A stretch of DNA of 52,053 nt from Propionicimonas sp. (lineage in GTDB: Bacteria; Actinomycetota; Actinomycetes; Propionibacteriales; Propionibacteriaceae). Shown here one piece after another: positions 13,759 through 34,037 of the stretch (position 1 is the first letter of the stretch; each line of letters opens with the position of its first letter). The notes beneath the pieces were generated by a model, which was not told the origin of the DNA, did no database searches, and saw only the letters and a program-made list of their open reading frames with translations. A program made the translations under genes and the position numbers. The stretch lies in the NCBI GenBank assembly GCA_030158185.1, contig JAOATP010000136.1:1-52053 (forward strand). Direction: 5' to 3'.

Positions 13759-16212
<2,454 letters not shown>

Positions 16213-16248
16213 CCGTGCCGGGAGTGCCTGAGTCGAGGAGGGCGAGCC

Positions 16249-16743
16249 ATGGGTTGGCTACCTGAGGACTTCGAGCATCCGCTGCGTGTGCCGGTGGGTG
16301 CCCATCACCACCTGCGGCCCATCCGGGCCTCGGACGTGGAGCTGGACATGCCGGCCGTGATGGGCTCGCAGCAACGGCTGTGGTCCATCTTCGGGAAGGC
16401 CTGGGGCTGGCCGCCGGCCACCATGACGATCGAGCAGGACCGCGAGGACCTGCTGCACCATGAGCGCGAGATCGCGGCGCACCTGTCCTTCAACTACGCC
16501 CTGTTCGACGAACAAGAGACCGAACTGCTCGGCTGTGTGTACCTCGACCCCCCAGAGAAGGTGGGCGCTGACGCGGAGGTCTCCTGGTGGGTGCGCGACG
16601 AGTACCTTGGCACCGACGTCGAGGCTGCCCTGGACGGTGTGGTCCCGGAATGGCTGGCCTCGTCGTGGCCCTTCACTGCCGTCCGCTACATCGGTCGCGA
16701 CCTGACCTGGGACGAGTGGCTTGCGCTCCCCGGCATCCGCTGA
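16249..16743 (+). CDS. GNAT-fold N-acetyltransferase-like protein
   Basis: LRPIRASDVELD...SFNYA...LLGCVY...VSWWV; GAGGAGG SD. Confidence 0.7.
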   Translation: MGWLPEDFEHPLRVPVGAHHHLRPIRASDVELDMPAVMGSQQRLWSIFGKAWGWPPATMTIEQDREDLLHHEREIAAHLSFNYALFDEQETELLGCVYLDPPEKVGADAEVSWWVRDEYLGTDVEAALDGVVPEWLASSWPFTAVRYIGRDLTWDEWLALPGIR

Positions 16744-16853
16744 GGTCGTCCTGCGGCGAAAGGCACCCACTGGAGCCCGATTCGCCCCGCCTTCCGTGCC
16801 TTTGACCGCGTCTCAGGTCGCACCGGCTTCAGGCCGCTGATTAGGGTTGGGCT

Positions 16854-17348
16854 GTGAACTCCGAATTCGACGACCTGCTGGCGGTCAACCGCCGATATGC
16901 CACCTCAGCACCGAAGAACTTCGACGGCATCGCCCACGCCGGGATCGCCGTTGTCACCTGCATGGACTCCCGGCTGCAACCGCTGGAGATGCTCGGCCTC
17001 TTCGTCGGGGAGGCGAAGATCCTGCGCACCCCTGGTGGCCACGTCACCCCTGACGCCCTTGTCGGCTGCGTGCTGGGGGTCAACCTGCTGCAGGTGAACC
17101 GGATCCTCGTGATCAGCCACAGCCGCTGCGCGATGGCCTCCGGTGACGACGCGGAGATCCGCGTCCGCGTCACCGAGGCCAGCGGGCGCGACGCTTCCGC
17201 CCTCACCCCGGACGCGGATCCCGACCAGGCCGGCCGGCTGCGCGCCGACGTCCAGACGCTGGCCAACCACCCGCTGATCAGCGGCCTTGCCGCGGTCGGC
17301 GGCTTCCACTACGACGTCGACACCGGCCTGCTCGCACAGGTCTGCTGA
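16854..17348 (+). CDS. Beta-class carbonic anhydrase
   Basis: TCMDSRL and HSRC Zn ligands; YDVDTG. Confidence 0.92.
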   Translation: MNSEFDDLLAVNRRYATSAPKNFDGIAHAGIAVVTCMDSRLQPLEMLGLFVGEAKILRTPGGHVTPDALVGCVLGVNLLQVNRILVISHSRCAMASGDDAEIRVRVTEASGRDASALTPDADPDQAGRLRADVQTLANHPLISGLAAVGGFHYDVDTGLLAQVC

Positions 17349-17363
17349 CCGGGCCGGAACCGA

Positions 17364-19448
17364 TCAGGCGTCGATGCGCTGGGAGTCCAGCGCGTAGGCA
17401 CCCTCGATGATGAACTCCTTGCGGGGAGCGACGTCGTTGCCCATCAGCTTCTCGAACGTGCCTTCGGCAGCCAGCGCGTCGTCGACGGTGAGGCGGCGCA
17501 GGGTCCGGTGCTGCAGGCTCATCGTGGTGTCGGCCAGCTCGTGGGCGTCCATCTCGCCGAGGCCCTTGTAGCGCTGCGGCTCCTTGAACGCCTGCCCTCG
17601 CTTGGTGAGTTCGGCCAGCTTCCTGCGGTACTCGGCGTCGTTGTACGTGTAGATGTACTTCTCCTGGCCCTTGCGCGGGCTGATCAGCTCGAACCGGTGC
17701 AGCGGCGGGACGGCGGTGTACACCCGGCCCGCCTCGACGAGCGGTCGCATGTACTTGAAGAACAGCGTCGCGAGCAGCGTGCGGATGTGGGCGCCGTCGG
17801 AGTCGGCGTCCGCCATGAAGATCACCTTCGAGTAGCGGGCGGCCTCGAGGTCGAACGTGCGCCCGGAACCGGCCCCCACCACCTGGATGATGGACGCGCA
17901 CTCTGCGTTCTTCAGCATGTCGCCGACGGACGCCTTCTGCACGTTCAGGATCTTGCCCCGGATCGGCAGCAGTGCCTGGAACTCCGAGTCCCGTGCCAGC
18001 TTCGCCGTGCCAAGGGCGGAGTCACCCTCGACGATGAACAGTTCCGTGCGATCAAGGTCCGTGCTGCGGCAGTCAGCGAGCTTCGCCGGCAGGGTGCTCG
18101 ACTCGAGCGCGTTCTTGCGACGCTGGGCGTCCTTGTGGGCGCGGGCCTGCAGGCGGGTGCGGGACGCGGCCACCACCTTCTCCATCACCGCCCGCGCCTG
18201 GGTGCGGAGGGCAGCCTTCGAAGAGGTCAGGAAGTCGCTGAGCTCTGCCTCGACGATGCGGGTGACCAGCCGGGTCACCGGCGGCGTGCCCAGCACCTCC
18301 TTCGTCTGGCCCTCGAACTGCGGCTCGGCAAGCCGGACGGTGACCACGGCCGTCAGCCCCTCCAGGGCGTCGTCCTTGATGATCTCCTCCCCCGCCTTCA
18401 ACAGCCGCGTGCCGTCGAGGCCGCGCAGGAAGGCACGGGTGAGCCCGCGCTCGAACCCGGTGAGGTGGGTGCCGCCCTTGGGGGTGGCGATGATGTTCAC
18501 GAACGAGTGCACGTGCGTGTCGTAGCCGGTGCCCCAGCGCAGGGCGATGTCCACGTCGAGGGTGCGCTCCACGTCGGTGGCCGTCATCGAGCCGGCGTCG
18601 TCGAGCATCGGCACGGTCTCTGTGAACTTGTCGGTGCCCTGCAGGCGGATCACCTCCGTCACGGGCGGGTCGGCGGCGAGGTAGTCGCAGAACTCGGAGA
18701 TGCCACCGTCGTGCTTGAACACCTCTGTGACCGGCTCGGCCTCCCGCGCATCGGTGACGACGAGTTCCAGGCCGGGAACAAGGAAGCTGGTCTGCCTCGC
18801 GCGGGCCAGCAGCTGGGTGCGCGACAGCTCGGCATGGGCGAGGAAGATCTGACGGTCGGGCCAGTACCGCACCCGCGTCCCTGTCACGCCCTTGTTCACC
18901 CGCCCGGTCTTCCGCAGGCCGCCGCCGGGCGTGAACGGTGCGTCGGGGCCGTCACCGTCGAACACCCCGGGGACGCCACGGCGGAAGCTCATCGACCAGA
19001 CGGCGCCGTTGCGGTCGACGTCGACGTCGAGGCGGACGCTCAGCGCGTTCACCACGGAGGCGCCGACGCCGTGCAGGCCGCCGGTGGCGTTGTAGCTGCC
19101 GGCACCGAACTTGCCGCCGGCGTGCAGCTTGGTGAAGACGACCTCGACGCCGCTGAGCTTGGTGCGCGGCTCGATGTCCACCGGGATGCCACGGGCACGG
19201 TCGACGACGTAGATGCTGCCGTCCGCCTCGAGGCGCACGTCGATCTTCGTGCCGAACCCGGAGAGCGCCTCGTCAACGGAGTTGTCGATGATCTCCCACA
19301 GGCAGTGCATCAGGCCGCGGGTGTCTGTGGAGCCGATGTACATGGCCGGGCGCTTGCGGACGGCTTCGAGGCCCTCCAGCACCAGGAGGTGCCGGGCTTC
19401 GTAGTCGCGGCCTTCTGCGGCGGTCTTGGTCGTGGTCACGCCTGACAT
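17364..19448 (-). CDS. parE: DNA topoisomerase IV subunit B (GyrB/ParE family)
   Basis: EAVRKRPAMYIG, EIIDNSVDE, LHAGGKF, VEGDSA, PIRGK, DADSDG and QRYKGLGEM motifs. Confidence 0.9.
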   Translation of the reverse strand: MSGVTTTKTAAEGRDYEARHLLVLEGLEAVRKRPAMYIGSTDTRGLMHCLWEIIDNSVDEALSGFGTKIDVRLEADGSIYVVDRARGIPVDIEPRTKLSGVEVVFTKLHAGGKFGAGSYNATGGLHGVGASVVNALSVRLDVDVDRNGAVWSMSFRRGVPGVFDGDGPDAPFTPGGGLRKTGRVNKGVTGTRVRYWPDRQIFLAHAELSRTQLLARARQTSFLVPGLELVVTDAREAEPVTEVFKHDGGISEFCDYLAADPPVTEVIRLQGTDKFTETVPMLDDAGSMTATDVERTLDVDIALRWGTGYDTHVHSFVNIIATPKGGTHLTGFERGLTRAFLRGLDGTRLLKAGEEIIKDDALEGLTAVVTVRLAEPQFEGQTKEVLGTPPVTRLVTRIVEAELSDFLTSSKAALRTQARAVMEKVVAASRTRLQARAHKDAQRRKNALESSTLPAKLADCRSTDLDRTELFIVEGDSALGTAKLARDSEFQALLPIRGKILNVQKASVGDMLKNAECASIIQVVGAGSGRTFDLEAARYSKVIFMADADSDGAHIRTLLATLFFKYMRPLVEAGRVYTAVPPLHRFELISPRKGQEKYIYTYNDAEYRRKLAELTKRGQAFKEPQRYKGLGEMDAHELADTTMSLQHRTLRRLTVDDALAAEGTFEKLMGNDVAPRKEFIIEGAYALDSQRIDA

Positions 19449-19543
19449 TATCTCGGCCGCGTAACAGTTCTTTGCATTCGCGTGACGGTGTCGGACCTGG
19501 CGTGGCTTTGTCGGAACCGCTGCATACACTGAACACCACGCCG

Positions 19544-19570
19544 GGAACAACGCAGCAGTCGTTGATGTTG
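19544..19570 (+). promoter_or_regulatory. Putative SigR/SigH-type ECF promoter
   Basis: GGAAC-N18-GTTG about 70 bp upstream of the small Cys/His protein gene. Confidence 0.45.
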
Positions 19571-19642
19571 GAAACGGTACGACCCCAGATCGTGAACGAC
19601 CCGAGGTTGTGAGCGTGGGTGACAAGAGAGCGAGGACCACTG

Positions 19643-22386: not shown

Positions 22387-23190
22387 TCACACGCTCTCGG
22401 CAAGCGCCCGGGACGCCATCCGCTCGCCCGGATGGGCCGGCCACCCGCAGGCGGAGGCGTAGAGGCAGATCTCGGTCTCGGGATCGATCCGCAGCAGGCC
22501 GGCGAGCTCGTCGTCGTAGAACCCGCCGAGGTTGACCGCGCCCAGGCCGAGCGCTACCGCTGCGAGGTTCAGGTTCTGCACCAGGTGACCGGCTTCGAGC
22601 AGCGCGTACCGGTAGCCCCGATCGCCGTACTTCACAAGGCTCCGGCCGGGGACGAAGCTCACGACGAAGACCACGGGTGCACGTGCCACCCAGTGCTGGC
22701 CCATGAACAGGTAGGTGACGAACGCCTCCGGCAGGGACACCTCCCGCACGAGTTCGAGTCCGTGGACGGCGGGCACGAAGTGGTGGACGCCGGGCGCAAG
22801 TCCTTCGACCCGCCGCACCAGCAGGCTGACCTCCAGTGGGTACAACCCTCCGCCGGAGGGCACCGGGCGGTCGTCCATCGTGTACCCGTCCCCCGCGCTG
22901 CGCCCGCCGACCCCGTAGCCGGCCGCCAGCAGGGCGGAGAGCTCGGCGAGGGTCACGGGGAGGTCCGTGAACGCCCGGCAGGACGCCCGGGCAGCGATCG
23001 CATCGGACAGCCCGGCAGGCAGGCGTGCCGGCGCAGGCAGCGGGAGGTACGGGGCGTCCGGGTCCTCGCGACCGGCGGTGAACTGCTGGCCGCCCGAACT
23101 GGAAGCGTTGAACTGCCACCGGGCGGTGGCCCGGTGGAACTCCCAGGCTGCCCGTTCGTGATCCCGCAGCCGGTGCGGCGCGACGTCCAT
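22387..23190 (-). CDS. SagB/ThcOx-family FMN-dependent azoline dehydrogenase
   Basis: RASCRAF, RPVPSGGGLYPLE, KYGDRGYRY (Lys-Tyr motif), LEAGH and GGFYD; ATG 1 nt after the YcaO stop. Confidence 0.9.
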   Translation of the reverse strand: MDVAPHRLRDHERAAWEFHRATARWQFNASSSGGQQFTAGREDPDAPYLPLPAPARLPAGLSDAIAARASCRAFTDLPVTLAELSALLAAGYGVGGRSAGDGYTMDDRPVPSGGGLYPLEVSLLVRRVEGLAPGVHHFVPAVHGLELVREVSLPEAFVTYLFMGQHWVARAPVVFVVSFVPGRSLVKYGDRGYRYALLEAGHLVQNLNLAAVALGLGAVNLGGFYDDELAGLLRIDPETEICLYASACGWPAHPGERMASRALAESV

Positions 23191-23191
23191 C

Positions 23192-25504
23192 TCAGGCCAC
23201 CGGATGGGGGGCGAGGTTGAGCTCGTCGAGCTCCGCCGGACGCGGCCGCAGGCCGAGCCGGTGCGGCATCGTCCGCAGCCGCGGGTGGCCCAGCCGGAAC
23301 TGGTCGGCGCCGAAGTGGATCGGCTGGAAGCCGGCGATGATGCCCCGCGCCACCCGGACGCCGAGCGCAGCGATGTCGTCGGTGGTGACATCGACGTAGA
23401 GCACGTCAGGGCTGACCGCTGCCAGGGAGCCCACGAGGCCGGCCAGGTCGGTCGGCGCGCGGTTACCGACCGCCTCCGACCATGTCAGCAGCTCGCCTTC
23501 GCGCCAGAATGAAAGCCCGCGGGCAGCTGCGGCCGGATCGGCGTAGAGCAGGTCGTGGTCCTCGAGTTCTGTCACCGTCGCAGGGTCGTCGACCAGTTGC
23601 GCCATCCGCTTGCGTACCTCGCCGCGCTGAAGGCGCAGGTGCAGGGCCGGACGGACCTGGGCGACCTCGAGCACAGCCTTGCGGGCGGCGGTGACCGGGT
23701 CGAGGGCGGCGCCGAGCCCGACGACGACGGCCGGCAGGCCCTCACTCCAGCCGAGGGCGATCGCCACGCTGGCTGCGCAGTCGGTGGGCAGCAGGTGCAC
23801 CTCGATCTCGACGCCGCGACGGTGGTAGAGGCCGGCGACCTGCGCTGCGGTGGCATCAGGGACGGTCCGGGCGTCCAGCCGCGGGGTGCTGAGGCGGTGC
23901 GCCCAGGCGATCAGGAACGCGTCGCGCTCGATGACTTCCAGCAGGCCGGCCTCGACAGCGTGGGCCAGCGTGGGGCCGGCGGCGAAGCCGTTGGACGTTG
24001 CCGGGAACAGGTACCCGGCGCGCTGGCTCACCTCGTGCCCGAGGTGGGCCGCCAGCCGCGGAACCCAGACGGTGTCACCGCTCACCAGCGACCGGGCGGT
24101 CACCCATTCGAGCTCGGAGTCCTCCGTGTAGCGGGCGAACGGGAGGGCGTCGTACTGGTGGTCGGCGAAGAGGACGAGTTCGGTGGGGTCGAGGCTCGGG
24201 CCCGGCAGATCAGCCCTTCGCGCCCGCCGCGCGCCGGGTGCGGGCCAGGTCAGCGAGGCGTACCGCTCGACCGCCTCACCAAGGGCGAGGTCGCGAGCGC
24301 GGCGCCGGTCCATCCCCTTGCCGGAGCAGGTGACGAAGGCGTCCGGTCCGGTGGCGAACCGGGCATTGGCCAGTTCTGCCCGCACGATGTGGGGGCGGGC
24401 AGGCTCGGAGGGGTCCTTGGGTACCTCGTCGAGGGCGCGGACCACGCCACAGAGGTCGCTGACCACCGCCCGCTCGATCGCATCGAAGTCGGTCGTCCGC
24501 TCCGGCAGGGCCGCGAGTTCAGCCAGCGTCGGGAGCACCGCGGGCTGCGGGAGGCCTTTTTTTCGGCAGGCCGGGCAGTCGGGCCGCTGCAGGACGGGGT
24601 GGCGGGTCTGGCGGCGTTCGAGCCCCTCGATCTGGAGGACGTGACCGGGCAGGCGGGCCGGCCCCGCAGCAACGAGCAGGGCCAGCGACTCCTGGATGAC
24701 GACCCCGGCCACCAGGGCTTGGAGCCCCGGCAGAACCGGCGGCGCTGTGCCGACGGCCCGTGCGTGGTCGCGCGCTTCCTCCCTCGCCATCGCGACGCCG
24801 AAGTCGTCGGCGCAGGCGAGCGCCCGCATCCGCCAGCAGAGGTAGCAGGGACCCTCGCCCGGCAGCACGAGGGGTCCGACGAACGCGTCCGAACCCTCGA
24901 GCGCCACCTGCAGCGAGGGGGTGTCGTTGTCGAGACTGAACCGGTTGACCCAGAGCCGGACGGCGGCCAGTCCGGGCTCGACCATCGCGACGACAAGGTC
25001 GCTACCGGAAAGCGCAGTGGCAAGGGCGTCGAAATCGAGGCGGGGCAGCGCCTCCGGGTCCACCAGCTCTGCGGCGTCGAGTCCGGCCCCTCGTAGGCCC
25101 GCCATCAGGTCGCCGGCCACCGACCTGTTCCCGACGACACGCACACGGGCGCTGGCGAGCGTCGCCGCAAGGCGCTGCCTGGTTGGCAGGTCGGCGCTGA
25201 GCAGTGTGGTCCACCCCGGGGGTGCCGGTTCCGAGGTGTCGGGGAGTTCCGTGACCAGCCCGGCGGCGACGAGCCGCACCACGAGGCGTTCGAGTTCGGC
25301 GCGCGGCAGGTCGGAGAGCGCGCCGTAGAGGTCGTCGGCTGTCGGTGTCATGGCAAGGGCGGGCAGCAGGCGCCGCCGCACCGCGTCTGCGACGCCACCG
25401 TCCAGCCGCAGCACGCCGGTGGCCGAGGCCATCAACAGCCCGTCAGGGGTGTCGATGACCTCGAGACCGGCGGCTGGGCTGAGCCGGGTGGTCCCGGACG
25501 TCAT
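23192..25504 (-). CDS. Fused RRE/E1-like leader-binding plus YcaO cyclodehydratase
   Basis: VGPLVLPGEGPCYLC and RPDCPAC (E1-like Zn site); SGKG, GEAVERY, TSNGFAAG and LLEVIERDA (YcaO ATP site); C-terminal PHPVA. Confidence 0.92.
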   Translation of the reverse strand: MTSGTTRLSPAAGLEVIDTPDGLLMASATGVLRLDGGVADAVRRRLLPALAMTPTADDLYGALSDLPRAELERLVVRLVAAGLVTELPDTSEPAPPGWTTLLSADLPTRQRLAATLASARVRVVGNRSVAGDLMAGLRGAGLDAAELVDPEALPRLDFDALATALSGSDLVVAMVEPGLAAVRLWVNRFSLDNDTPSLQVALEGSDAFVGPLVLPGEGPCYLCWRMRALACADDFGVAMAREEARDHARAVGTAPPVLPGLQALVAGVVIQESLALLVAAGPARLPGHVLQIEGLERRQTRHPVLQRPDCPACRKKGLPQPAVLPTLAELAALPERTTDFDAIERAVVSDLCGVVRALDEVPKDPSEPARPHIVRAELANARFATGPDAFVTCSGKGMDRRRARDLALGEAVERYASLTWPAPGARRARRADLPGPSLDPTELVLFADHQYDALPFARYTEDSELEWVTARSLVSGDTVWVPRLAAHLGHEVSQRAGYLFPATSNGFAAGPTLAHAVEAGLLEVIERDAFLIAWAHRLSTPRLDARTVPDATAAQVAGLYHRRGVEIEVHLLPTDCAASVAIALGWSEGLPAVVVGLGAALDPVTAARKAVLEVAQVRPALHLRLQRGEVRKRMAQLVDDPATVTELEDHDLLYADPAAAARGLSFWREGELLTWSEAVGNRAPTDLAGLVGSLAAVSPDVLYVDVTTDDIAALGVRVARGIIAGFQPIHFGADQFRLGHPRLRTMPHRLGLRPRPAELDELNLAPHPVA

Positions 25505-25516
25505 GAACGCCGGGAC

Positions 25517-25849
25517 TCAGCCACCGAGGCCACCGAAGCGCTCGATGCCCCCGGTCATCGGACCGATGTTGCAGGGTCCGCAGGTGCACTCGAAGATGCA
25601 CCGCTGGATGCACCGCTGGACGCAGAAGTAGTCGCAGAGCTTGATGCACCGCTGTGGACGGAAGCAGTCGTTGATCCCGCAGAAGTCGCCGTAGTCGGCC
25701 GCGATGACATCGCGCACCTTCTGGTAGGCGGCCATTTCCTCGGGGGTGAAGGCAGCCGTCGCCGACGCGGACGCGCCGGCGGCTGCCAACTTGTTCTCCA
25801 GTTCTTCGATCCGACCCTTCAGTGCGTCGAATTCCTCCTGGCTTGCCAT
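25517..25849 (-). CDS. Putative Cys-rich RiPP (azole) precursor peptide, 110 aa
   Basis: GAGGGAGG SD; helical leader; 10 Cys in CGINDCFRPQRCIKLCDYFCVQRCIQRCIFECTCGPC; Gly-rich tail; directly upstream of YcaO. Confidence 0.85.
   Translation of the reverse strand: MASQEEFDALKGRIEELENKLAAAGASASATAAFTPEEMAAYQKVRDVIAADYGDFCGINDCFRPQRCIKLCDYFCVQRCIQRCIFECTCGPCNIGPMTGGIERFGGLGG
25595..25654. repeat. 12-bp tandem repeat (5 units) encoding CxxxC periodicity
   Basis: GATGCACCGCTG x2, GACGCAGAAGTA, GTCGCAGAGCTT, GATGCACCGCTG on the + strand. Confidence 0.8.
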
Positions 25850-27600: not shown

Positions 27601-28434
27601 TCAGGCGCAGGCGTCCGGCTTGGGCGGATTCACGGCGGTGTCGGGCGTGAAACCGGACTTGCCGACCGTCGCGTCCAGCGCCTTCTGCCAGGACCCGTCG
27701 GTGACCATCTTGGCCAGCGAGGTGTTGATCGCGTTGCAGAGCTTGGTGTCGCCCATCTTGATCCCGACGCCGTAGCGCTCGGTGCTGAAGGTCTTGCCGA
27801 CCACCTTCAGCTTCCCGGCGTACTGCGCCTGGGCCGCGAAGCCGGCGAGGATCACGTTGTCGGTGGTCACCGCGTCGATCGATCCGGACGCGAGCGCGTC
27901 CACGCACTTGGAGTAGGTGTCGTACTCCTGCAGCTGCACCTGGTTGGCGAACTGGTCCTGGATCTTCTTCGCAGAGGTCGACCCGGTCACCGAACAGAGC
28001 TTCTTGCCGTTGAGGGTCTCCGGGCCGGTGATGGCGGTGTTGGCCGCAGCGACGAGGAGGTCCTGGCCGGCCTGGAAGTACGGCCCGCCGAAGGAGACCT
28101 TCTTCTTGCGGTCGTCGGTGATCGAGTAGGTGGCGAAGATCATCTTCACCTGGTCACTGGCCAGCAGGGTCTCGCGCTGGGCAGACGGTGTCTCCTTGAA
28201 CTCGACCTCGGTGTAGCCGAGGTCCTTGGCGACGTACTTGGCCACCTCGACGTCGAAGCCGGTGTAGCCGTCGCCCTCCTTCAGCCCGAGGCCCGGCTGG
28301 TCGAACTTGATCCCGACGATCACCTTGCCGCCGGTTCCGGGGTCACCACCGGCGGGGCTGCCCGCGCAGGCTGTCAGGCTCGCGCCAAGGACCACAGCTG
28401 ATGCGGTGGCCGCGAGTGCTTTGAGGAAAGGCAT
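27601..28434 (-). CDS. gluB: Glutamate ABC transporter substrate-binding lipoprotein
   Basis: Lipobox LTAC; GIKFDQPGLG, ATYSITDDR and AVTTDNVIL. Confidence 0.88.
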   Translation of the reverse strand: MPFLKALAATASAVVLGASLTACAGSPAGGDPGTGGKVIVGIKFDQPGLGLKEGDGYTGFDVEVAKYVAKDLGYTEVEFKETPSAQRETLLASDQVKMIFATYSITDDRKKKVSFGGPYFQAGQDLLVAAANTAITGPETLNGKKLCSVTGSTSAKKIQDQFANQVQLQEYDTYSKCVDALASGSIDAVTTDNVILAGFAAQAQYAGKLKVVGKTFSTERYGVGIKMGDTKLCNAINTSLAKMVTDGSWQKALDATVGKSGFTPDTAVNPPKPDACA

Positions 28435-28464
28435 GTCTACTCCTTGGGTTGGCGGGTGCGGGAG

Positions 28465-29238
28465 TCAGTGGGTGAGGATCTTGCTCAGGAAGTCCTTGGC
28501 GCGCGGCGTGCCCGGGTTGGTGAAGAACGCCTCCGGGGTGTTCTCCTCCATGATCAGGCCGTCGGACATGAACACCACGCGGTCGGCCGCCTTGCGTGCG
28601 AAGCCCATCTCGTGGGTCACGACGACCATGGTCATCCCCGCGCGGGCAAGGGTGACCATCACGTCGAGCACCTCGTTGACCATCTCCGGGTCGAGCGCAG
28701 AGGTGGGCTCGTCGAACAGGATGACCTTGGGGTCCATGGCAAGGGCCCGGGCGATGGCCACCCGTTGCTGCTGGCCGCCGGAGAGCTGCGCCGGGTACTT
28801 GCCTGCCTGGTCGGCAACCCCCACCCGCTCGAGCAGTTCGAGGCCGCGCTTCTCTGCGACGTCCTGCTTCACCCCGCGCACCTTGGTGGGGCCGAGGGTG
28901 ACGTTGGCCAGCACGGTCTTGTGGGCGAAGAGGTTGAACGACTGGAACACCATGCCCACGTCTGCGCGCAGCCGTGCGAGCTCCCTGCCCTCCTCTGGCA
29001 GCGGGACGCCGTCGATGCTGATGCTGCCCGAGCCGATGGTCTCCAGGCGGTTGATCGCCCGGCACAGGGTCGACTTCCCCGAGCCGGACGGACCGAGCAC
29101 GACGACAACCTCACCCTTGTGGACGATGAGGTTGATGTCGTTGAGGACGTGCAACTCCCCGAAGTGCTTGTTCACACCCGTGAGCACGACGAGGGGGTCC
29201 CCCACGCTCGCCTCCAGGGCTGCTTCCGGGGCTGTCAT
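28465..29238 (-). CDS. gluA: Glutamate ABC transporter ATP-binding protein
   Basis: [17 protein letters not shown] and FDEPTSALD. Confidence 0.88.
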
Positions 29239-29320
29239 CTACCGAACGTAGCGGCAGCCCCCGCCGATGGCGAGGGCTGCCGCACGTATCAGAATTACGC
29301 CCCGCTGGGCGGGGTTGGGA

Positions 29321-30670
29321 TCAGTCCAGGTAGTCGCGCAATACCTGCGAGCGGGACGGATGACGCAGCTTGCTCATCGTCTTGGACTCGATCTGGCGGA
29401 TCCGCTCACGCGTGACGCCGTAGACCTTGCCGATCTCGTCGAGCGTCTTGGGCTGGCCGTCCGTGAGGCCGAACCGCATGCTGACCACGCCGGCCTCGCG
29501 CTCGCTGAGCGTGTCCAGCACGTCGTGCAACTGCTCCTGCAGGAGCGTGAAGTTCACCGCCTCCGCGGGAACCACCGCCTCGGAGTCCTCGATCAGGTCG
29601 CCGAACTCGCTGTCGCCGTCCTCGCCGAGCGGGGTGTGCAGCGAGATGGGCTCGCGGCCGTACTTCTGGACCTCCACGACCTTCTCGGGGGTCATGTCGA
29701 GCTCCTTGGCGAGCTCCTCCGGCGTGGGCTCGCGGCCCAGGTCCTGGAGCATCTGCCGCTGGACGCGGGCCAGCTTGTTGATGACCTCGACCATGTGCAC
29801 CGGGATGCGGATCGTGCGGGCCTGGTCGGCCATCGCACGGGTGATGGCCTGCTTGATCCACCACGTCGCGTACGTGGAGAACTTGTAGCCCTTGGTGTAG
29901 TCGAACTTCTCGACCGCGCGGATCAGGCCGAGGTTGCCCTCCTGGATCAGGTCGAGGAAGAGCATCCCGCGACCCGTGTACCGCTTGGCGAGGGAAACGA
30001 CGAGGCGCAGGTTGGCTTCGAGCAGGTGGTTCTTCGCGCGGCGTCCGTCCTCGGAGATCCACTCCAGGTCGACCGCGGCTTCTGCGGTGGACTTGCCCTC
30101 GTTGACGGTCTCCTCTGCGAACAGGCCGGCTTCGATCCGCTTCGCGAGCTGGACCTCCATCTCGGCGTTCAGCAGGGCGACCTTGCCGATCTGCTTGAGG
30201 TAGTCCTTCACCGGGTCCGCGGTCGCACCGGCGACCATGACCTGCTGCTCGGGCTCATCGGCGTCGTCGGCGTCGGAGAGGCTGAAGCCGCCGTCCTCGA
30301 CGAGTTCCTGCTCGGTCTTGACCGCCTCCGCCGGCTCGAAGCCGGAGTCGTCGACATCGTCGAGGGTGCGCTTCTTGCCGCCGACGGTGAGCACGACCTC
30401 ATCGCCCTCGCGCTGGAACTTCACGTTCTCGACGTTGTTGCCGGGAACGATCACTTCCTCGAGCGTGACTTCCTCGAGCACGATCTCTTCCTCGACAAGG
30501 ATGTCGGGTGTGGGCTCGACGTCCTCGTCGGGGGTGACCGGCGAGGTGGGGTCGACGGCCGGAACCGCCTTCACCGGTGACGCGGCCGCCTTCTTCGTCC
30601 GTCCGCGGGGCGCAACTACGGCGGCCTCTTCGGACTGGGAAACGGCGGCGGCGTTGGAGCGTGGGGACAC
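29321..30670 (-). CDS. rpoD: Principal RNA polymerase sigma factor (HrdB/SigA)
   Basis: [34 protein letters not shown] and [30 protein letters not shown]; start uncertain (GTG 30670, ORF open to 30706). Confidence 0.93.
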
Positions 30671-30808
30671 AGGCAAACCTCTCAACGAAAGCGTTTCAGG
30701 GCGCACAACACACGGGTGCTGTCAATACATCGCAGGTCCATTGTGCCACGGTAAGGGCGAACACCCAAGCCGGGCCCGGCTCCCGGCTCCGGCTCTAGGC
30801 TGTGCAGC

Positions 30809-32938
30809 ATGCCTGCAGCCGACCGACCACCGGTGGCCCCCCGCCGTCCCTCCACGCGTACCCACCACGGCGATACCTTCACCGATCCCTACGCCTGGAT
30901 GCGGGACAAGACTGATCCGGAGTTCGTCGCCTACCTGAACGCGGAGAACGCCTACACCGACGCGGTCACCGCACCACTGGCAGAACTGCGGCAGGAGATC
31001 TACGGCGACATCTCGGCGCGCACCAAGCAGACCGACCTCAGCGTCCCGGAATTCGTCCGCCATCCCGGCCTCGGGGAGTTCTGGTACTACGCCCGCTCGA
31101 CGGAGGGGCTCGACTACCCCAGCTACCACCGCTGCCCTGCGCAGGGGCGCGACTCCCTGCCCGATCCCGGCAAGGGTGCCCCCGAGGGCGAGCAGTTGCT
31201 GCTGGACGCCCAGGCGCTCGCGGCGGGCACGGACTTCTTTTCCATGGGCTGCTTCGACGTCTCCCCCAACGGCCGGCTCGCCGCCTACTCCGTGGACACC
31301 AGCGGCGACGAGCGCTACCACCTCCGCTTCTTCGACCTGATCACCGGGCAGGCACTGCCGGACGAGGTGGCAGAAGTGGCATCCGGCGGCTGCTGGGCCG
31401 GCGACGGGGCGTTCTGCTACCTGACCGTCGACGACGCCTGGCGACCCGACCGCCTGTGGCGCCACCGTCTCGGCGACACCGGTGAGGACGAGCTGCTCCA
31501 CACCGAGGACGACGAACGGTTCTGGCTCGGCGTCGACTGCTCGCGCGACAACCGCTGGGTGCAGCTCGGCGCTGCCAGCAAGACCAGCACGGAGACCTGG
31601 CTGCTGGACGCCACCGACCCCGCGTCCACCCTGCGCTCGGTCGCTCCCCGGCGCGACGACATCGAGTACGACGTGGAGGTGGCAGGCGACCGGCTGTTCA
31701 TCGTCCACAACGACGGCGCCCCCGACTTCGCGCTGGCACAGGCGCCGCTGACCTCCACCGACGCGACCGACTGGACGCCGATCTGGCCGGGCGAGCCCGG
31801 CGTCCGGCTGCTCGGCGTCGTCTCCTACGACCGCGTGCTGGTGCAGAGCCTGCGCCGCGACGGCCTGCAGGTCGTCACCCTGCGCCACCGGGACGCTGCC
31901 GGCGATGTCGGCGAGGAGGTCGGCATCGCGTTCGACGAGCCGATCTACACCGTCGACGTCGACGGTGGCGACGAGGCCGACACCGACCGCATCCGGTTGC
32001 ACTACCAGTCGATGGTCACCCCGGACGAGGTGATCGACTACCGCATCGCGGACGGCACCCGCACCGTCCTGCGCCGCCGGCCGGTGCTCGACCACCCGGT
32101 CCACGGCCCCTACCGGCCCACCGACTACCGGCAGCAGAGGGTGTGGGCAGAGGCCGGGGACGGCACCCGCATCCCGATCTCGCTGGTGTACCGGGCCGAC
32201 ACCCCGCTGGACGGGAGCGCCGGCTGCCTGCTGTACGGGTACGGCGCCTACGAGATCAGCGTGTCCCCGTCCTTCTCCATCGCACGCCTCAGCCTGCTCG
32301 ACCGCGGTTACCTCTACGCGGTCGCCCACGTGCGCGGCGGCGGCGAGCTCGGCAGGGCCTGGTACACCGGCGGCCGCCTCGAGGCGAAGGAGAACACCTT
32401 CACCGACTTCATCACCTGCGCGCGCTACCTGGTCTCGGCCGGCTACACCACCACCGGACGGCTGGCAGCCGAGGGTGGCAGTGCCGGCGGCCTGCTGATC
32501 GGCGCAGCCCTCAACCTCGCGCCGGACGCGTTCGCAGCCGTCCACGCCGCCGTCCCGTTCGTCGACGCCCTCACCACGATCCTCGACCCGGAGCTCCCGC
32601 TGACGGTGATGGAGTGGGAGGAGTGGGGCGACCCGCTGCACGACCCGGAGGCGTACGCAAGGATGCGGCGCTACTCCCCCTACGAGAACGTCAGGGCAGC
32701 GCAGTACCCGGCCGTCCTCGTCACGACAAGCCTCAACGACACAAGGGTCGAGATCACCGAGCCGGCCAAGTGGGTGGCTGCCCTGCGGCACGACTCCGGT
32801 TCCAGCAGTCCGATCCTGCTCAAGACCGAGATGGTCGCCGGCCACGGCGGCAGTTCCGGGCGCTACCAGGCCTGGCGGGACGCTGCGTTCGAGCTCGCCT
32901 GGCTGATCGCTGCGACCCCGCCTCCTCCGAAGGACTGA
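30809..32938 (+). CDS. ptrB: Oligopeptidase B (S9A)
   Basis: DPYAWMRD, YGYGAYE, HVRGGGELG, GGSAGG, EEWGDP and AGHGG. Confidence 0.92.
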   Translation: MPAADRPPVAPRRPSTRTHHGDTFTDPYAWMRDKTDPEFVAYLNAENAYTDAVTAPLAELRQEIYGDISARTKQTDLSVPEFVRHPGLGEFWYYARSTEGLDYPSYHRCPAQGRDSLPDPGKGAPEGEQLLLDAQALAAGTDFFSMGCFDVSPNGRLAAYSVDTSGDERYHLRFFDLITGQALPDEVAEVASGGCWAGDGAFCYLTVDDAWRPDRLWRHRLGDTGEDELLHTEDDERFWLGVDCSRDNRWVQLGAASKTSTETWLLDATDPASTLRSVAPRRDDIEYDVEVAGDRLFIVHNDGAPDFALAQAPLTSTDATDWTPIWPGEPGVRLLGVVSYDRVLVQSLRRDGLQVVTLRHRDAAGDVGEEVGIAFDEPIYTVDVDGGDEADTDRIRLHYQSMVTPDEVIDYRIADGTRTVLRRRPVLDHPVHGPYRPTDYRQQRVWAEAGDGTRIPISLVYRADTPLDGSAGCLLYGYGAYEISVSPSFSIARLSLLDRGYLYAVAHVRGGGELGRAWYTGGRLEAKENTFTDFITCARYLVSAGYTTTGRLAAEGGSAGGLLIGAALNLAPDAFAAVHAAVPFVDALTTILDPELPLTVMEWEEWGDPLHDPEAYARMRRYSPYENVRAAQYPAVLVTTSLNDTRVEITEPAKWVAALRHDSGSSSPILLKTEMVAGHGGSSGRYQAWRDAAFELAWLIAATPPPPKD

Positions 32939-32951
32939 CCCCGGGGGCCAC

Positions 32952-32980
32952 CCGTGGTCGTGGGTTGCGTACGACCACGG
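32952..32980 (+). terminator. Hairpin after ptrB (possible terminator)
   Basis: CCGTGGTCGT-N9-ACGACCACGG perfect 10-bp stem followed by TCTT. Confidence 0.55.
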
Positions 32981-33086
32981 TCTTGATCTGCGTGATTCCC
33001 TGCCCTCGGGGTAATCCACACGGTGTCGGGGGCAGAAATCGGGCCCCCTCGCGCGTTGTACTGATGACGAGCGAAAGGGACTCACA

Positions 33087-34037
33087 GTGATCGCCACGGC
33101 ACATCGGATTCGCAGTACAGACGGCATCGACGGCAAGGATGCGGTCGGCCTCTACCTGGACGGGATCGCAAAGACCCCGCTGCTGACAGCAGAGGAAGAG
33201 GTCCAGCTCGCCAAGTTGATCGAGGCCGGTCGGTTCGCCCACGCGATCATCGACGGCACCCTTGCCCCCGAGGAATCAGCGCTCCACAAGGTGAAGGCCA
33301 CCAAGGCCGAGCTGCAGGAGATCGCCGACCAGGGTGACGCTGCCATGCAGCGCTTCATCACGGCCAACCTGCGGCTCGTCGTCTCTGTCGCCCGCAAGTA
33401 CGGCCGGGCCCAGATGCCGCTGCTCGACCTGGTGCAGGAGGGCAACACAGGCCTCATCCGCGCCGTCGAGAAGTTCGACTACACCAAGGGCTTCAAGTTC
33501 TCCACCTACGCCACCTGGTGGGTCCGCCAGTCGATCTCCCGCGGCATCGCCCAGCAGGGACGCATCGTGCGCCTCCCCGTGCACGTCGCGGAGCAGGTCA
33601 ACCAGGTCTCCGCCGTCCGCCGCACCCTCGAGCGCCGTTTCGGCCGCGAGCCGGAGCTGTTCGAGATCGCTGAGGAGCTCGGCGTGAAGGAGGAGACGAT
33701 CGTCGACCTGTTGCGCCTCTCGCGTGACCACGTCAGCCTCGACGCTCCCGTCGAGGAGGACGGCGACACGGCCCTCGGCGACCTGCTGGCAAGGGAGATG
33801 TCTCCAGGTCCGGACGAGGTCGTGCTGGACGCCGAGGATCGCGCCCGGCTCGACGCCATGCTGGCAAGCCTCGACGAGCGTTCCCAGGACGTGGTTCGTC
33901 GCCGCTACGGGCTGGTCGACGGTCGCCAGGCCAAGCTCGCCGACATCGCCGCCATCTGGGGCATCACCGCCGAGCGGGTTCGCCAGATCGAACGGCACGC
34001 CATCACCAAGCTGCGAGGGGACTCCGAGGCCGCCTGA
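33087..34037 (+). CDS. Group 2 sigma-70 factor (HrdD/SigB-like)
   Basis: [32 protein letters not shown] and AERVRQIE; lacks region 1.1; AAGGGA SD. Confidence 0.9.
   Translation: MIATAHRIRSTDGIDGKDAVGLYLDGIAKTPLLTAEEEVQLAKLIEAGRFAHAIIDGTLAPEESALHKVKATKAELQEIADQGDAAMQRFITANLRLVVSVARKYGRAQMPLLDLVQEGNTGLIRAVEKFDYTKGFKFSTYATWWVRQSISRGIAQQGRIVRLPVHVAEQVNQVSAVRRTLERRFGREPELFEIAEELGVKEETIVDLLRLSRDHVSLDAPVEEDGDTALGDLLAREMSPGPDEVVLDAEDRARLDAMLASLDERSQDVVRRRYGLVDGRQAKLADIAAIWGITAERVRQIERHAITKLRGDSEAA

Follow-up and report, generated by a model that had tools for sequence, protein, structure and literature searches.

A likely -1 frameshift site between the scaffold and YcaO parts of an azole peptide cyclodehydratase in Propionicimonas

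The synthetase of microcin B17 is described as an McbB4C2D2 complex with two scaffold subunits per YcaO subunit, the leader of the precursor being clamped between two scaffolds (PMC6395948). In the same account about half of the YcaO clusters encode scaffold and YcaO as a fusion and about half as separate genes (PMC6395948). The scaffold:YcaO ratio in structures is 2:1 for McbBCD and 1:1 for LynD/TruD. One gene may also supply a long and a short subunit, as described for dnaX (tau/gamma) and chlD, where an A-rich site is used by ribosomal or, alternatively, polymerase slippage (PMC1088944, PMC3711429, PMC9227772). Here we describe a three-gene cassette for a ribosomally made peptide with post-translational modifications (RiPP) on contig JAOATP010000136.1 of Propionicimonas sp. 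(the whole stretch of 52,053 nucleotides (nt) is referred to as the window). It encodes a Cys-rich precursor, a cyclodehydratase in which an RRE-E1 scaffold part (C) is fused to a YcaO part (D), and a SagB-type dehydrogenase. The operon likely makes Cys-derived thiazoles, and its enzyme gene likely shifts by -1 at an A_AAA_AAA run between C and D, which would give a free RRE-E1 protein of 328 amino acids (aa) beside the 770-aa fusion (Table 1).

The cassette shares with McbBCD an RRE-E1 scaffold, a YcaO protein, a flavin mononucleotide (FMN) dehydrogenase and a leader-bearing precursor, and the model of the C part matches McbB. Unlike McbB and McbD, which are separate genes, one gene would here give both forms; the precursor is also unrelated to that of microcin B17 (110 aa, spaced Cys, few Ser/Thr, conserved follower), and no export or immunity genes are linked to the cassette. 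The cyanobactin enzymes TruD and LynD are the top sequence and fold matches of the fused enzyme, and the leader-core-follower layout of the precursor is shared as well. However, TruD and LynD are described as homodimers of full fusions, and PatA/PatG-like proteases were not found at the cassette, where the 80 nearest flanking genes gave one isolated S8 match. The likeness to dnaX and chlD lies in the A-rich site through which one gene would give a long and a short subunit of one complex; the difference is that it sits in a peptide-modifying enzyme and that in-frame, -1 and split layouts coexist in one family. The junctions point to recoding of the dnaX/chlD kind in a setting for which we found no report, in what is by every testable feature otherwise a linear azole-peptide operon. 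The open-access literature, covered mostly as listings, held no report of this precursor family or of a frameshift in a YcaO or RiPP gene, and two supplementary files of Antonov 2013 contained no YcaO term (another file, possibly with relevant cluster lists, lay outside the search).

Alignment of the C domains revealed two or three Lys residues directly behind the final Zn-type CxxC. The window has CGA AAA AAA GGC at this junction. The resulting A7 is one of two A/T runs of at least seven in the genome (2,837,103 bases), six neighbouring genes have one AAA among their 108 Lys codons, and the two AAA codons of the operon both lie at this site. Contigs of three DNA studies, one of which may be the source of the window, span the A7 without gaps, contigs being prone to drop rare variants; independent short-read contigs carry it at an unchanged length. 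We scored 101 junctions, 86 of them distinct, and excluded 12 loci with C but too little D. A run of at least seven within 24 nt of the CxxC was present at 65 of the 86 distinct junctions, compared with 11 runs in 150,816 nt elsewhere in the same genes. The runs were A7 at 25 junctions and A9–11 at 40, and lengths of 6 or 8 did not occur. Without exception the 25 A7 runs have the phase A_AAA_AAA; the preceding codon is CGA (22), TCA (2) or GCA (1), so the amino acid varies while the final A is kept. An in-phase slippery heptamer X_XXY_YYZ, a feature of programmed -1 frameshifting, is accordingly present in 25/25 A7 junctions. By comparison, nothing longer than A2 was present at about 17 distinct YcaO junctions taken from other actinobacterial clusters, two of them close relatives whose enzymes are 51% identical (some of these CxxC calls are rough).

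Three gene layouts were found. The in-frame layout, to which the window belongs, accounts for 49 of the 86 junctions, and a stop in the -1 frame follows within 15 codons in 44 of these, where 14.1 were expected from the same genes. For GC-rich in-frame loci the figures are 30 of 35 against 5.4 expected, whereas in the +1 frame of the 49 loci 22 stops compare with 15.8 expected. In the -1 layout (16/86) frame 0 ends after 5–39 codons and a slip is needed to reach D; one of these loci has a start led by a Shine-Dalgarno sequence, and two have no start codon at all before the homologous part. In the split layout (15/86) D has its own start codon, which overlaps the stop of C in 11 loci, and the run is absent from all 15. 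D was never found in the +1 frame of a locus with a run (0/65). The tail of free C past the CxxC is of similar length in the three layouts. Two of the split loci (L050 and L133) carry an A5 14 nt past the last CxxC, from where the -1 frame runs on into D without a stop; this may be what is left of a slip site.

The layouts are interleaved on a quick YcaO tree of 86 rows, from which 6 short rows were left out. A reduced tree of 41 rows lacks 19 loci with contig names of the long-read type (L059 stayed in) and 11 near-duplicates. On this tree the 11 -1 loci require 8 changes, at least 5 of them forced by supported branches, and a single -1 clade is rejected by the approximately unbiased test (p 0.0002). 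Some supported clades remain -1 throughout, and their D genes are under purifying selection (dN/dS 0.11–0.42 in 7 pairs); these are therefore neither errors nor decaying genes.

The A7 loci differ from the longer runs in their downstream RNA. A hairpin 4–8 nt downstream falls in the top decile of its own gene in 14 of 25 A7 loci vs 2 of 40 A9+ loci, and hairpins of -10 kcal or lower occur in 15 of 25 A7 loci vs 20% of control windows. The peak at 6 nt, which the A9+ loci lack (2 of 40), lies within the stimulator spacing of 5–8 nt given for -1 ribosomal frameshifting (PMC4066793) and differs from that of a terminator. The hairpin is very strong (z -4.7) in L058, an A7 locus of the -1 layout from a cultured strain. 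A Shine-Dalgarno-like upstream stimulator was not seen by eye, with no formal test, within 25 nt 5' of the run. Polymerase slippage is reported at lengths of A9 and above, and dnaX is described as using either the ribosome or the polymerase route (PMC1088944).

The cyclodehydratase passes the models for SagD-type YcaO proteins (TIGR03604, 266 bits vs a cut-off of 219) and for the leader-binding C domain (TIGR03882, 65 vs 37 bits), and the dehydrogenase passes the SagB model (TIGR03605, 136 vs 78 bits). Across the family the catalytic motifs are kept in 41–51 of 52–54 enzymes: the ATP/Mg motifs of YcaO in 43–51 of 52 and the SagB motifs RxSxR and KYGxRGxR[YF] in 51 and 41 of 54, respectively. 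A PHPx[AS] tail is present in 50 of 52. The E1-like part is of the non-catalytic kind, with degenerate P-loop and SNLxRQ motifs. TruD and LynD are the closest solved enzymes (sequence E 5e-31). When residues 1–313 of the C part were modelled alone, the predicted local distance difference test (pLDDT) was 95 and the predicted template-modelling score (pTM) 0.90, and the model matched TruD/LynD with a template-modelling (TM) score of 0.67 and McbB with E 8e-11; C is thus predicted to fold as a self-contained RRE-E1 protein. The excess of -1 stops, this predicted fold and the purifying selection on D in -1 loci all point to both products being selected proteins. A predicted complex of the precursor with two copies of C scored 0.47 (best control 0.00), with a run agreement of 0% and a partner pLDDT of at least 35. 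Among solved pairs 116 of 157 reach the mark for this score, as do 2 of 215 mismatched ones; 18 and 2 of these, respectively, scored 0.60 or less. Complexes like that of the precursor with a C dimer are already solved. The prediction is a weak hint that the C dimer may bind the precursor.

The window precursor has 10 Cys residues (positions 57, 62, 68, 72, 76, 80, 84, 88, 90, and 93) with five consecutive i+4 steps. Searches returned 80 (phmmer), 471 (profile) and 77 (50%-cluster library) relatives, those with a name all being called 'hypothetical protein'. A YcaO gene follows the precursor in 55 of 59 loci of the genome scan and a SagB gene in 54, the misses lying at contig ends. Of 80 metagenome loci 45 have at least 2 kb downstream and 44 of these carry the enzyme; in the 45th a radical SAM gene comes first and the contig is then cut. 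With this many relatives and YcaO directly downstream in nearly all genome loci, the precursor open reading frame (ORF) is not a chance one. It had no NCBIfam match and no Pfam match at cut-off, its profile found nothing below E 0.04 among PDB sequences, the ESM Atlas gave two unnamed clusters only (both under 0.9), and it is absent from the precursor table of Cox 2015 as available in PMC4603692. The layout of the family is constant. A predicted helix comes first, then a second one with a YxKV-like motif at its end; next are CGINDC and ECxCGPC with a variable middle between them, and a Gly-rich tail closes the peptide. The model of the window precursor places helices at residues 4–25 and 36–51 with low confidence elsewhere (mean pLDDT 61, core below 50) and was left out of the fold search. 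In the alignment CGINDC, ECxCGPC and the F-x-x-L-G tail are far better conserved than the middle. There, Cys makes up 22% of the residues, Arg 14%, Val 13% and Ile 11%; Ser/Thr are scarce and Glu is nearly absent.

Cys spacing was counted in 180 precursors with a CGINDC-like start, taken from 203 fetched relatives with ECxCGP. Steps of i+3 (450) and i+4 (467) are equally common, and 100 precursors are dominated by CxxxC, 63 by CxxC, with 17 tied. The preliminary description, made from the letters of the window, had drawn attention to a CxxxC repeat. The five consecutive steps bear this out for the window precursor, but the spacing is a trait of this member and not of the family, and with so many CxxC-dominant relatives it does not set the family apart from CxxC-type repeats, as had been proposed. 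Nor is the Ala linker noted there conserved in the alignment. The proposed linkage to YcaO genes was borne out at the genome and metagenome loci given above, and no characterised RiPP appeared among the matches of the similarity search. An uncharacterised poly-thiazole family had been suggested, of which the uncharacterised status and the YcaO/SagB linkage hold, while the formation of poly-thiazoles is still an inference. Likewise, the fused cyclodehydratase exists in frame 0 as stated, but the fusion is very likely conditional and its gene likely holds a recoding site that had been overlooked.

Based on enzyme families and conserved motifs, thiazole chemistry is highly probable. By analogy with known families, the RRE would clamp the leader of the precursor, YcaO with ATP would make thiazolines and SagB would oxidise these. 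The likely product is a poly-thiazole peptide of cationic and hydrophobic character, which could be handled by unlinked proteases and transporters or be retained in the cell. From the comparison of junctions, recoding at the family level is very probable, and its activity in the window copy is probable to a good degree. The A7 copies, most of which have a hairpin about 6 nt downstream, would shift on the ribosome, and in the A9–11 copies, which have no hairpin, RNA polymerase would slip to give the same two proteins. Free C might, speculatively, pair with the C part of the fusion to give a scaffold excess like the 2:1 of McbB:McbD; that recoding serves to set this ratio is a reading we favour only slightly in our analysis. 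We lean to a similar, small degree towards a family, spanning many phyla, in which recoding would determine the subunit composition of the heterocyclase, with free flips among layouts and between ribosome and polymerase slippage and with both proteins always kept.

Several observations weigh against this reading. The RNA downstream of the run in the window does not surpass shuffled sequence in folding (z +0.56), the hairpin test gives 0 for L001, the closest relative of this copy, and ten aligned A7 flanks gave no shared covarying fold. Contigs from RNA libraries could not show a shift, none of them spanning the A-run. Most A7 loci fall in one actinobacterial clade, and therefore the junction counts are not independent but inflated by kinship. 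In E. coli, published chelatase cassettes shifted 10% with A7, 40% with A9 and 63% with A11 (PMC3711429), so the window copy may make only modest amounts of free C; an unaided A7 at about 10% would be far below the 50% required for a strict 2:1. A long run is missing from six in-frame fusions among the 86 loci (two lack any A run), and L179 (816–3293) and L185 are likewise plain fusions without a run, with a YcaO 51% identical and a place within the family tree; in the stretch of DNA fetched for these two, no precursor was recognised. Free C is therefore dispensable in some lineages. Concerning the chemistry, the last residue of YcaO is Ala or Ser and not Pro, a terminal Pro being absent from TruD and LynD too. 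No conserved protease, transporter or immunity gene was found among the 80 nearest flanking genes. In four of the six in-frame fusions without a long run (L011, L016, L034, and L055) an A4–5 is followed by a rare Arg codon (CGA or AGA), and three of them keep a nearby -1 stop; these junctions may be single-tRNA slip sites.

The slip could be real but serve tuning, by lowering the output of YcaO and the coupled SagB or by pausing the ribosome between the domains, with free C as a by-product. This would suit the weak shifting of an A7 without a strong hairpin in published tests (PMC3711429), the window hairpin that does not exceed shuffles, the plain fusions in the family and the function of TruD and LynD as full fusions. 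We still find it improbable, as the -1 loci would make mostly free C, the split loci encode free C separately with a similar tail, and all loci that have free C in any case are without the run (15/15). A further notch down in likelihood stands the idea that the window copy gives the same two products by slippage of RNA polymerase and not of the ribosome. All 25 A7 runs are in the phase for tRNA re-pairing, a polymerase is blind to frame, and the hairpins of the A7 class peak at a 6-nt spacer; on the other side, 40 of 65 runs have the A9–11 length reported for polymerase slippage and the window has no clear stimulator. The run might also be a DNA phase-variation switch or an assembly error, with the -1 loci as OFF or miscalled copies, which we consider very improbable. 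Although A9–10 runs are mutable, the layouts lie one base apart and alternate on the tree, and 4 of the 16 -1 loci (L039, L040, L049, and L057) have contig names of the long-read type (judged on names alone), this explanation does not agree with the absence of +1 loci with a run, the supported -1 clades with D under purifying selection, the existence of A7 -1 loci such as L058, or the constant A7 of the window in the contigs of three studies, even allowing for the loss of rare variants from contigs. It is hardly credible that hairpin and run form an intrinsic terminator for the opposite strand or that both Lys are required as residues. A consensus scan calls one plus-strand terminator-like site at 24542–24557 (0.8 expected by chance) and in 7 of 25 A7 loci the antisense strand has a fold at offset 0 that reaches -10 kcal, but the fold peak is at 6 nt rather than 0–2 nt, and a terminator leaves the phase, the -1 stop and the -1 loci unexplained; Lys-Lys, in turn, could use AAG and is absent in the split loci.

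A rival that concerns the product alone, and leaves the frameshift claim untouched, is a partly heterocyclised peptide that would stay in the cell and bind metal through unmodified thiols of CGINDC and ECxCGPC, instead of a released antimicrobial. This is possible but rather unlikely. The stronger conservation of both Cys motifs and the tail relative to the middle would agree with it, as would the lack of linked protease, exporter or immunity genes in the 80 nearest flanks and of a TldD/PmbA match in the 80%-complete genome. Metal-handling genes are, however, not enriched among the 80 flanking genes, and the variable Arg/Val/Ile-rich core, the tandem precursors and the patchy spread (1 of 40 genus relatives) fit competition peptides. 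As a separate candidate, adenylation of the C-terminal GG of the precursor by the E1 part (ThiF/MoeB-like) was rejected, the nucleotide motifs being degenerate and a GG end occurring in 99 of 180 precursors only.

If frameshifting of the cyclodehydratase gene holds true, RiPP biosynthesis would have its first described case of recoding, and discrete and fused cyclodehydratases would be linked by a living intermediate. It would add a non-mobile bacterial recoding case with two apparent mechanisms to a peptide family that is unnamed, widespread and minimal, with three genes. Fused, frameshift-joined and split forms exist side by side, and the role of a scaffold excess is therefore directly testable by a synonymous change of two codons. 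The -1 loci would look like broken genes to annotators, and codon optimisation for expression would wipe out the slip signal.

Among peptides with regular Cys spacing, heterocycloanthracin and sonorensin have Cys-Xaa-Xaa repeats of variable length (PMC2674419), and the 63 CxxC-dominant relatives resemble them (TIGR03601) in this respect. The window precursor, however, had zero matches to TIGR03601 and 1 of 59 relatives reached 27.1 vs the 35 bits required. As described, the precursor there is usually far from the enzymes and a separate F protein stands beside a C-D fusion (PMC2674419, PMC4603692), whereas here it adjoins the enzymes, only three genes are conserved, the leader is different and CGINDC, ECxCGPC and the follower are conserved. 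Phazolicin is described with azoles at every third residue (PMC7136475), and by this description its spacing can be set beside the Cys repeats of the family; unlike the present cassette, its cluster is phzEACBD and the product has 27 aa (PMC7136475). The exporter of that cluster is phzE. The window precursor matches no NHLP or Nif11-leader family, 2 of 59 relatives giving no better than E 0.047 with NF038399. Long pure three-residue Cys repeats with heterocycloanthracin-like spacing were seen in L056 (7998–8348, about 10 VCQ units) and L040 (8007–8390). In two Bacteroidota loci, L046 (869–1666) and L059 (4515–5217), a pair of precursor genes stands in tandem, alike in the leader but not in the core; the second of L059 appears frameshifted.

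Table 1. Features of the cassette in the window, with positions on the whole stretch.
Feature	Position	Strand	Description and basis
Precursor gene, 110 aa	25517..25849	-	Helical leader, Cys-rich core, Gly-rich follower; homologue search, alignment, model
Predicted core, Cys57-Cys93	25571..25681	-	CGINDC and ECxCGPC ends, hypervariable middle rich in Cys/Arg/Val/Ile; boundaries inferred
Gly-rich follower ending in F-x-x-L-G	25520..25570	-	Motif in 196/203 relatives
Cyclodehydratase gene, frame 0, RRE-E1 (C) fused to YcaO (D), 770 aa	23192..25504	-	Family models
C part, residues 1-313, RRE and non-catalytic E1-like scaffold, two Zn-type CxxC	24566..25504	-	Predicted fold, self-contained
A7 slippery run, phase A_AAA_AAA, immediately 3' of the last CxxC of the C part	24557..24563	-	
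TGA in the -1 frame, predicted end of the 328-aa free C after a -1 slip	24519..24521	-	
YcaO (D) domain, ATP/Mg-binding motifs, PHPxA tail	23195..24325	-	Family models, motifs
SagB-type FMN dehydrogenase (B), 267 aa, RxSxR and KYGxRGYRY motifs	22387..23190	-	Family models, motifs

The three ORFs all lie on the minus strand in the order precursor, cyclodehydratase, dehydrogenase, and their coordinates confirm the tight gaps (12 nt and 1 nt) reported in the preliminary description. The cassette is flanked on one side by an S9 peptidase (PF00326), convergent with it, and on the other by the permease gene that closes an amino-acid ABC operon. Peptidase and permease gene adjoin without a cassette between them in 11 of 19 genus relatives; the cassette was therefore inserted here and the peptidase is a mere neighbour. 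As a maturation protease it is rejected, being convergent, present in 36 of 40 genus relatives where the cassette is present in 1 of 40, and without a match in 139 related loci. The promoter scan called none. The precursor is covered by contigs from four RNA libraries of two studies, three of which extend into the enzyme gene; with DNA carry-over being possible, this hints only weakly at expression. The surroundings (13759–19640 and 27601–34037) have a housekeeping character; they hold genes for topoisomerase subunits, for two sigma factors and for another S9-type peptidase besides the amino-acid ABC operon (identified by eye, the binding protein alone by library scan).

The loci span at least eight phyla, namely Actinomycetota, Pseudomonadota, Myxococcota, Acidobacteriota, Bacteroidota, Planctomycetota, Gemmatimonadota, Fibrobacterota, and others. 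The cassette is patchy at close range, being present in 1 of 40 genus and 5 of 150 family relatives. Its carriers in culture include Micropruina glycogenica, Georgenia spp., Roseovarius albus and Pyxidicoccus fallax, the Pyxidicoccus copy having the -1 layout. A phylum sample of 400 other genomes gave one match, which had no matching precursor ORF and is no real match; six unpublished genomes count only in the denominators of the 401-genome tallies and contribute no locus. The plasmid search gave no match. Viral contigs gave a single one of 19 residues, to the ECxCGP end of the precursor (L209, 1492–1548). No conserved fourth gene was found when the nearest gene on each side was scanned in a subset of loci (80 genes, mutually unrelated; 76 second-nearest genes lay outside the scan), and the three genes are the only ones common to the loci, except for a radical SAM gene in an acidobacterial branch. 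In this branch (L042, 8321–10237; L043, L048, L050, L052, and L134) a B12 radical SAM methyltransferase (TIGR03975, 683 bits) lies between precursor and C. The same loci have split C and D genes and precursors without CGINDC, whose Cys residues are often five apart. Two further genes were seen once each: in L018 (6423–7769, Actinoplanes) a LanC-like gene diverges from the cassette, whereas in the acidobacterium L042 (13579–14655) a gene for a radical SAM-SPASM protein converges on it.

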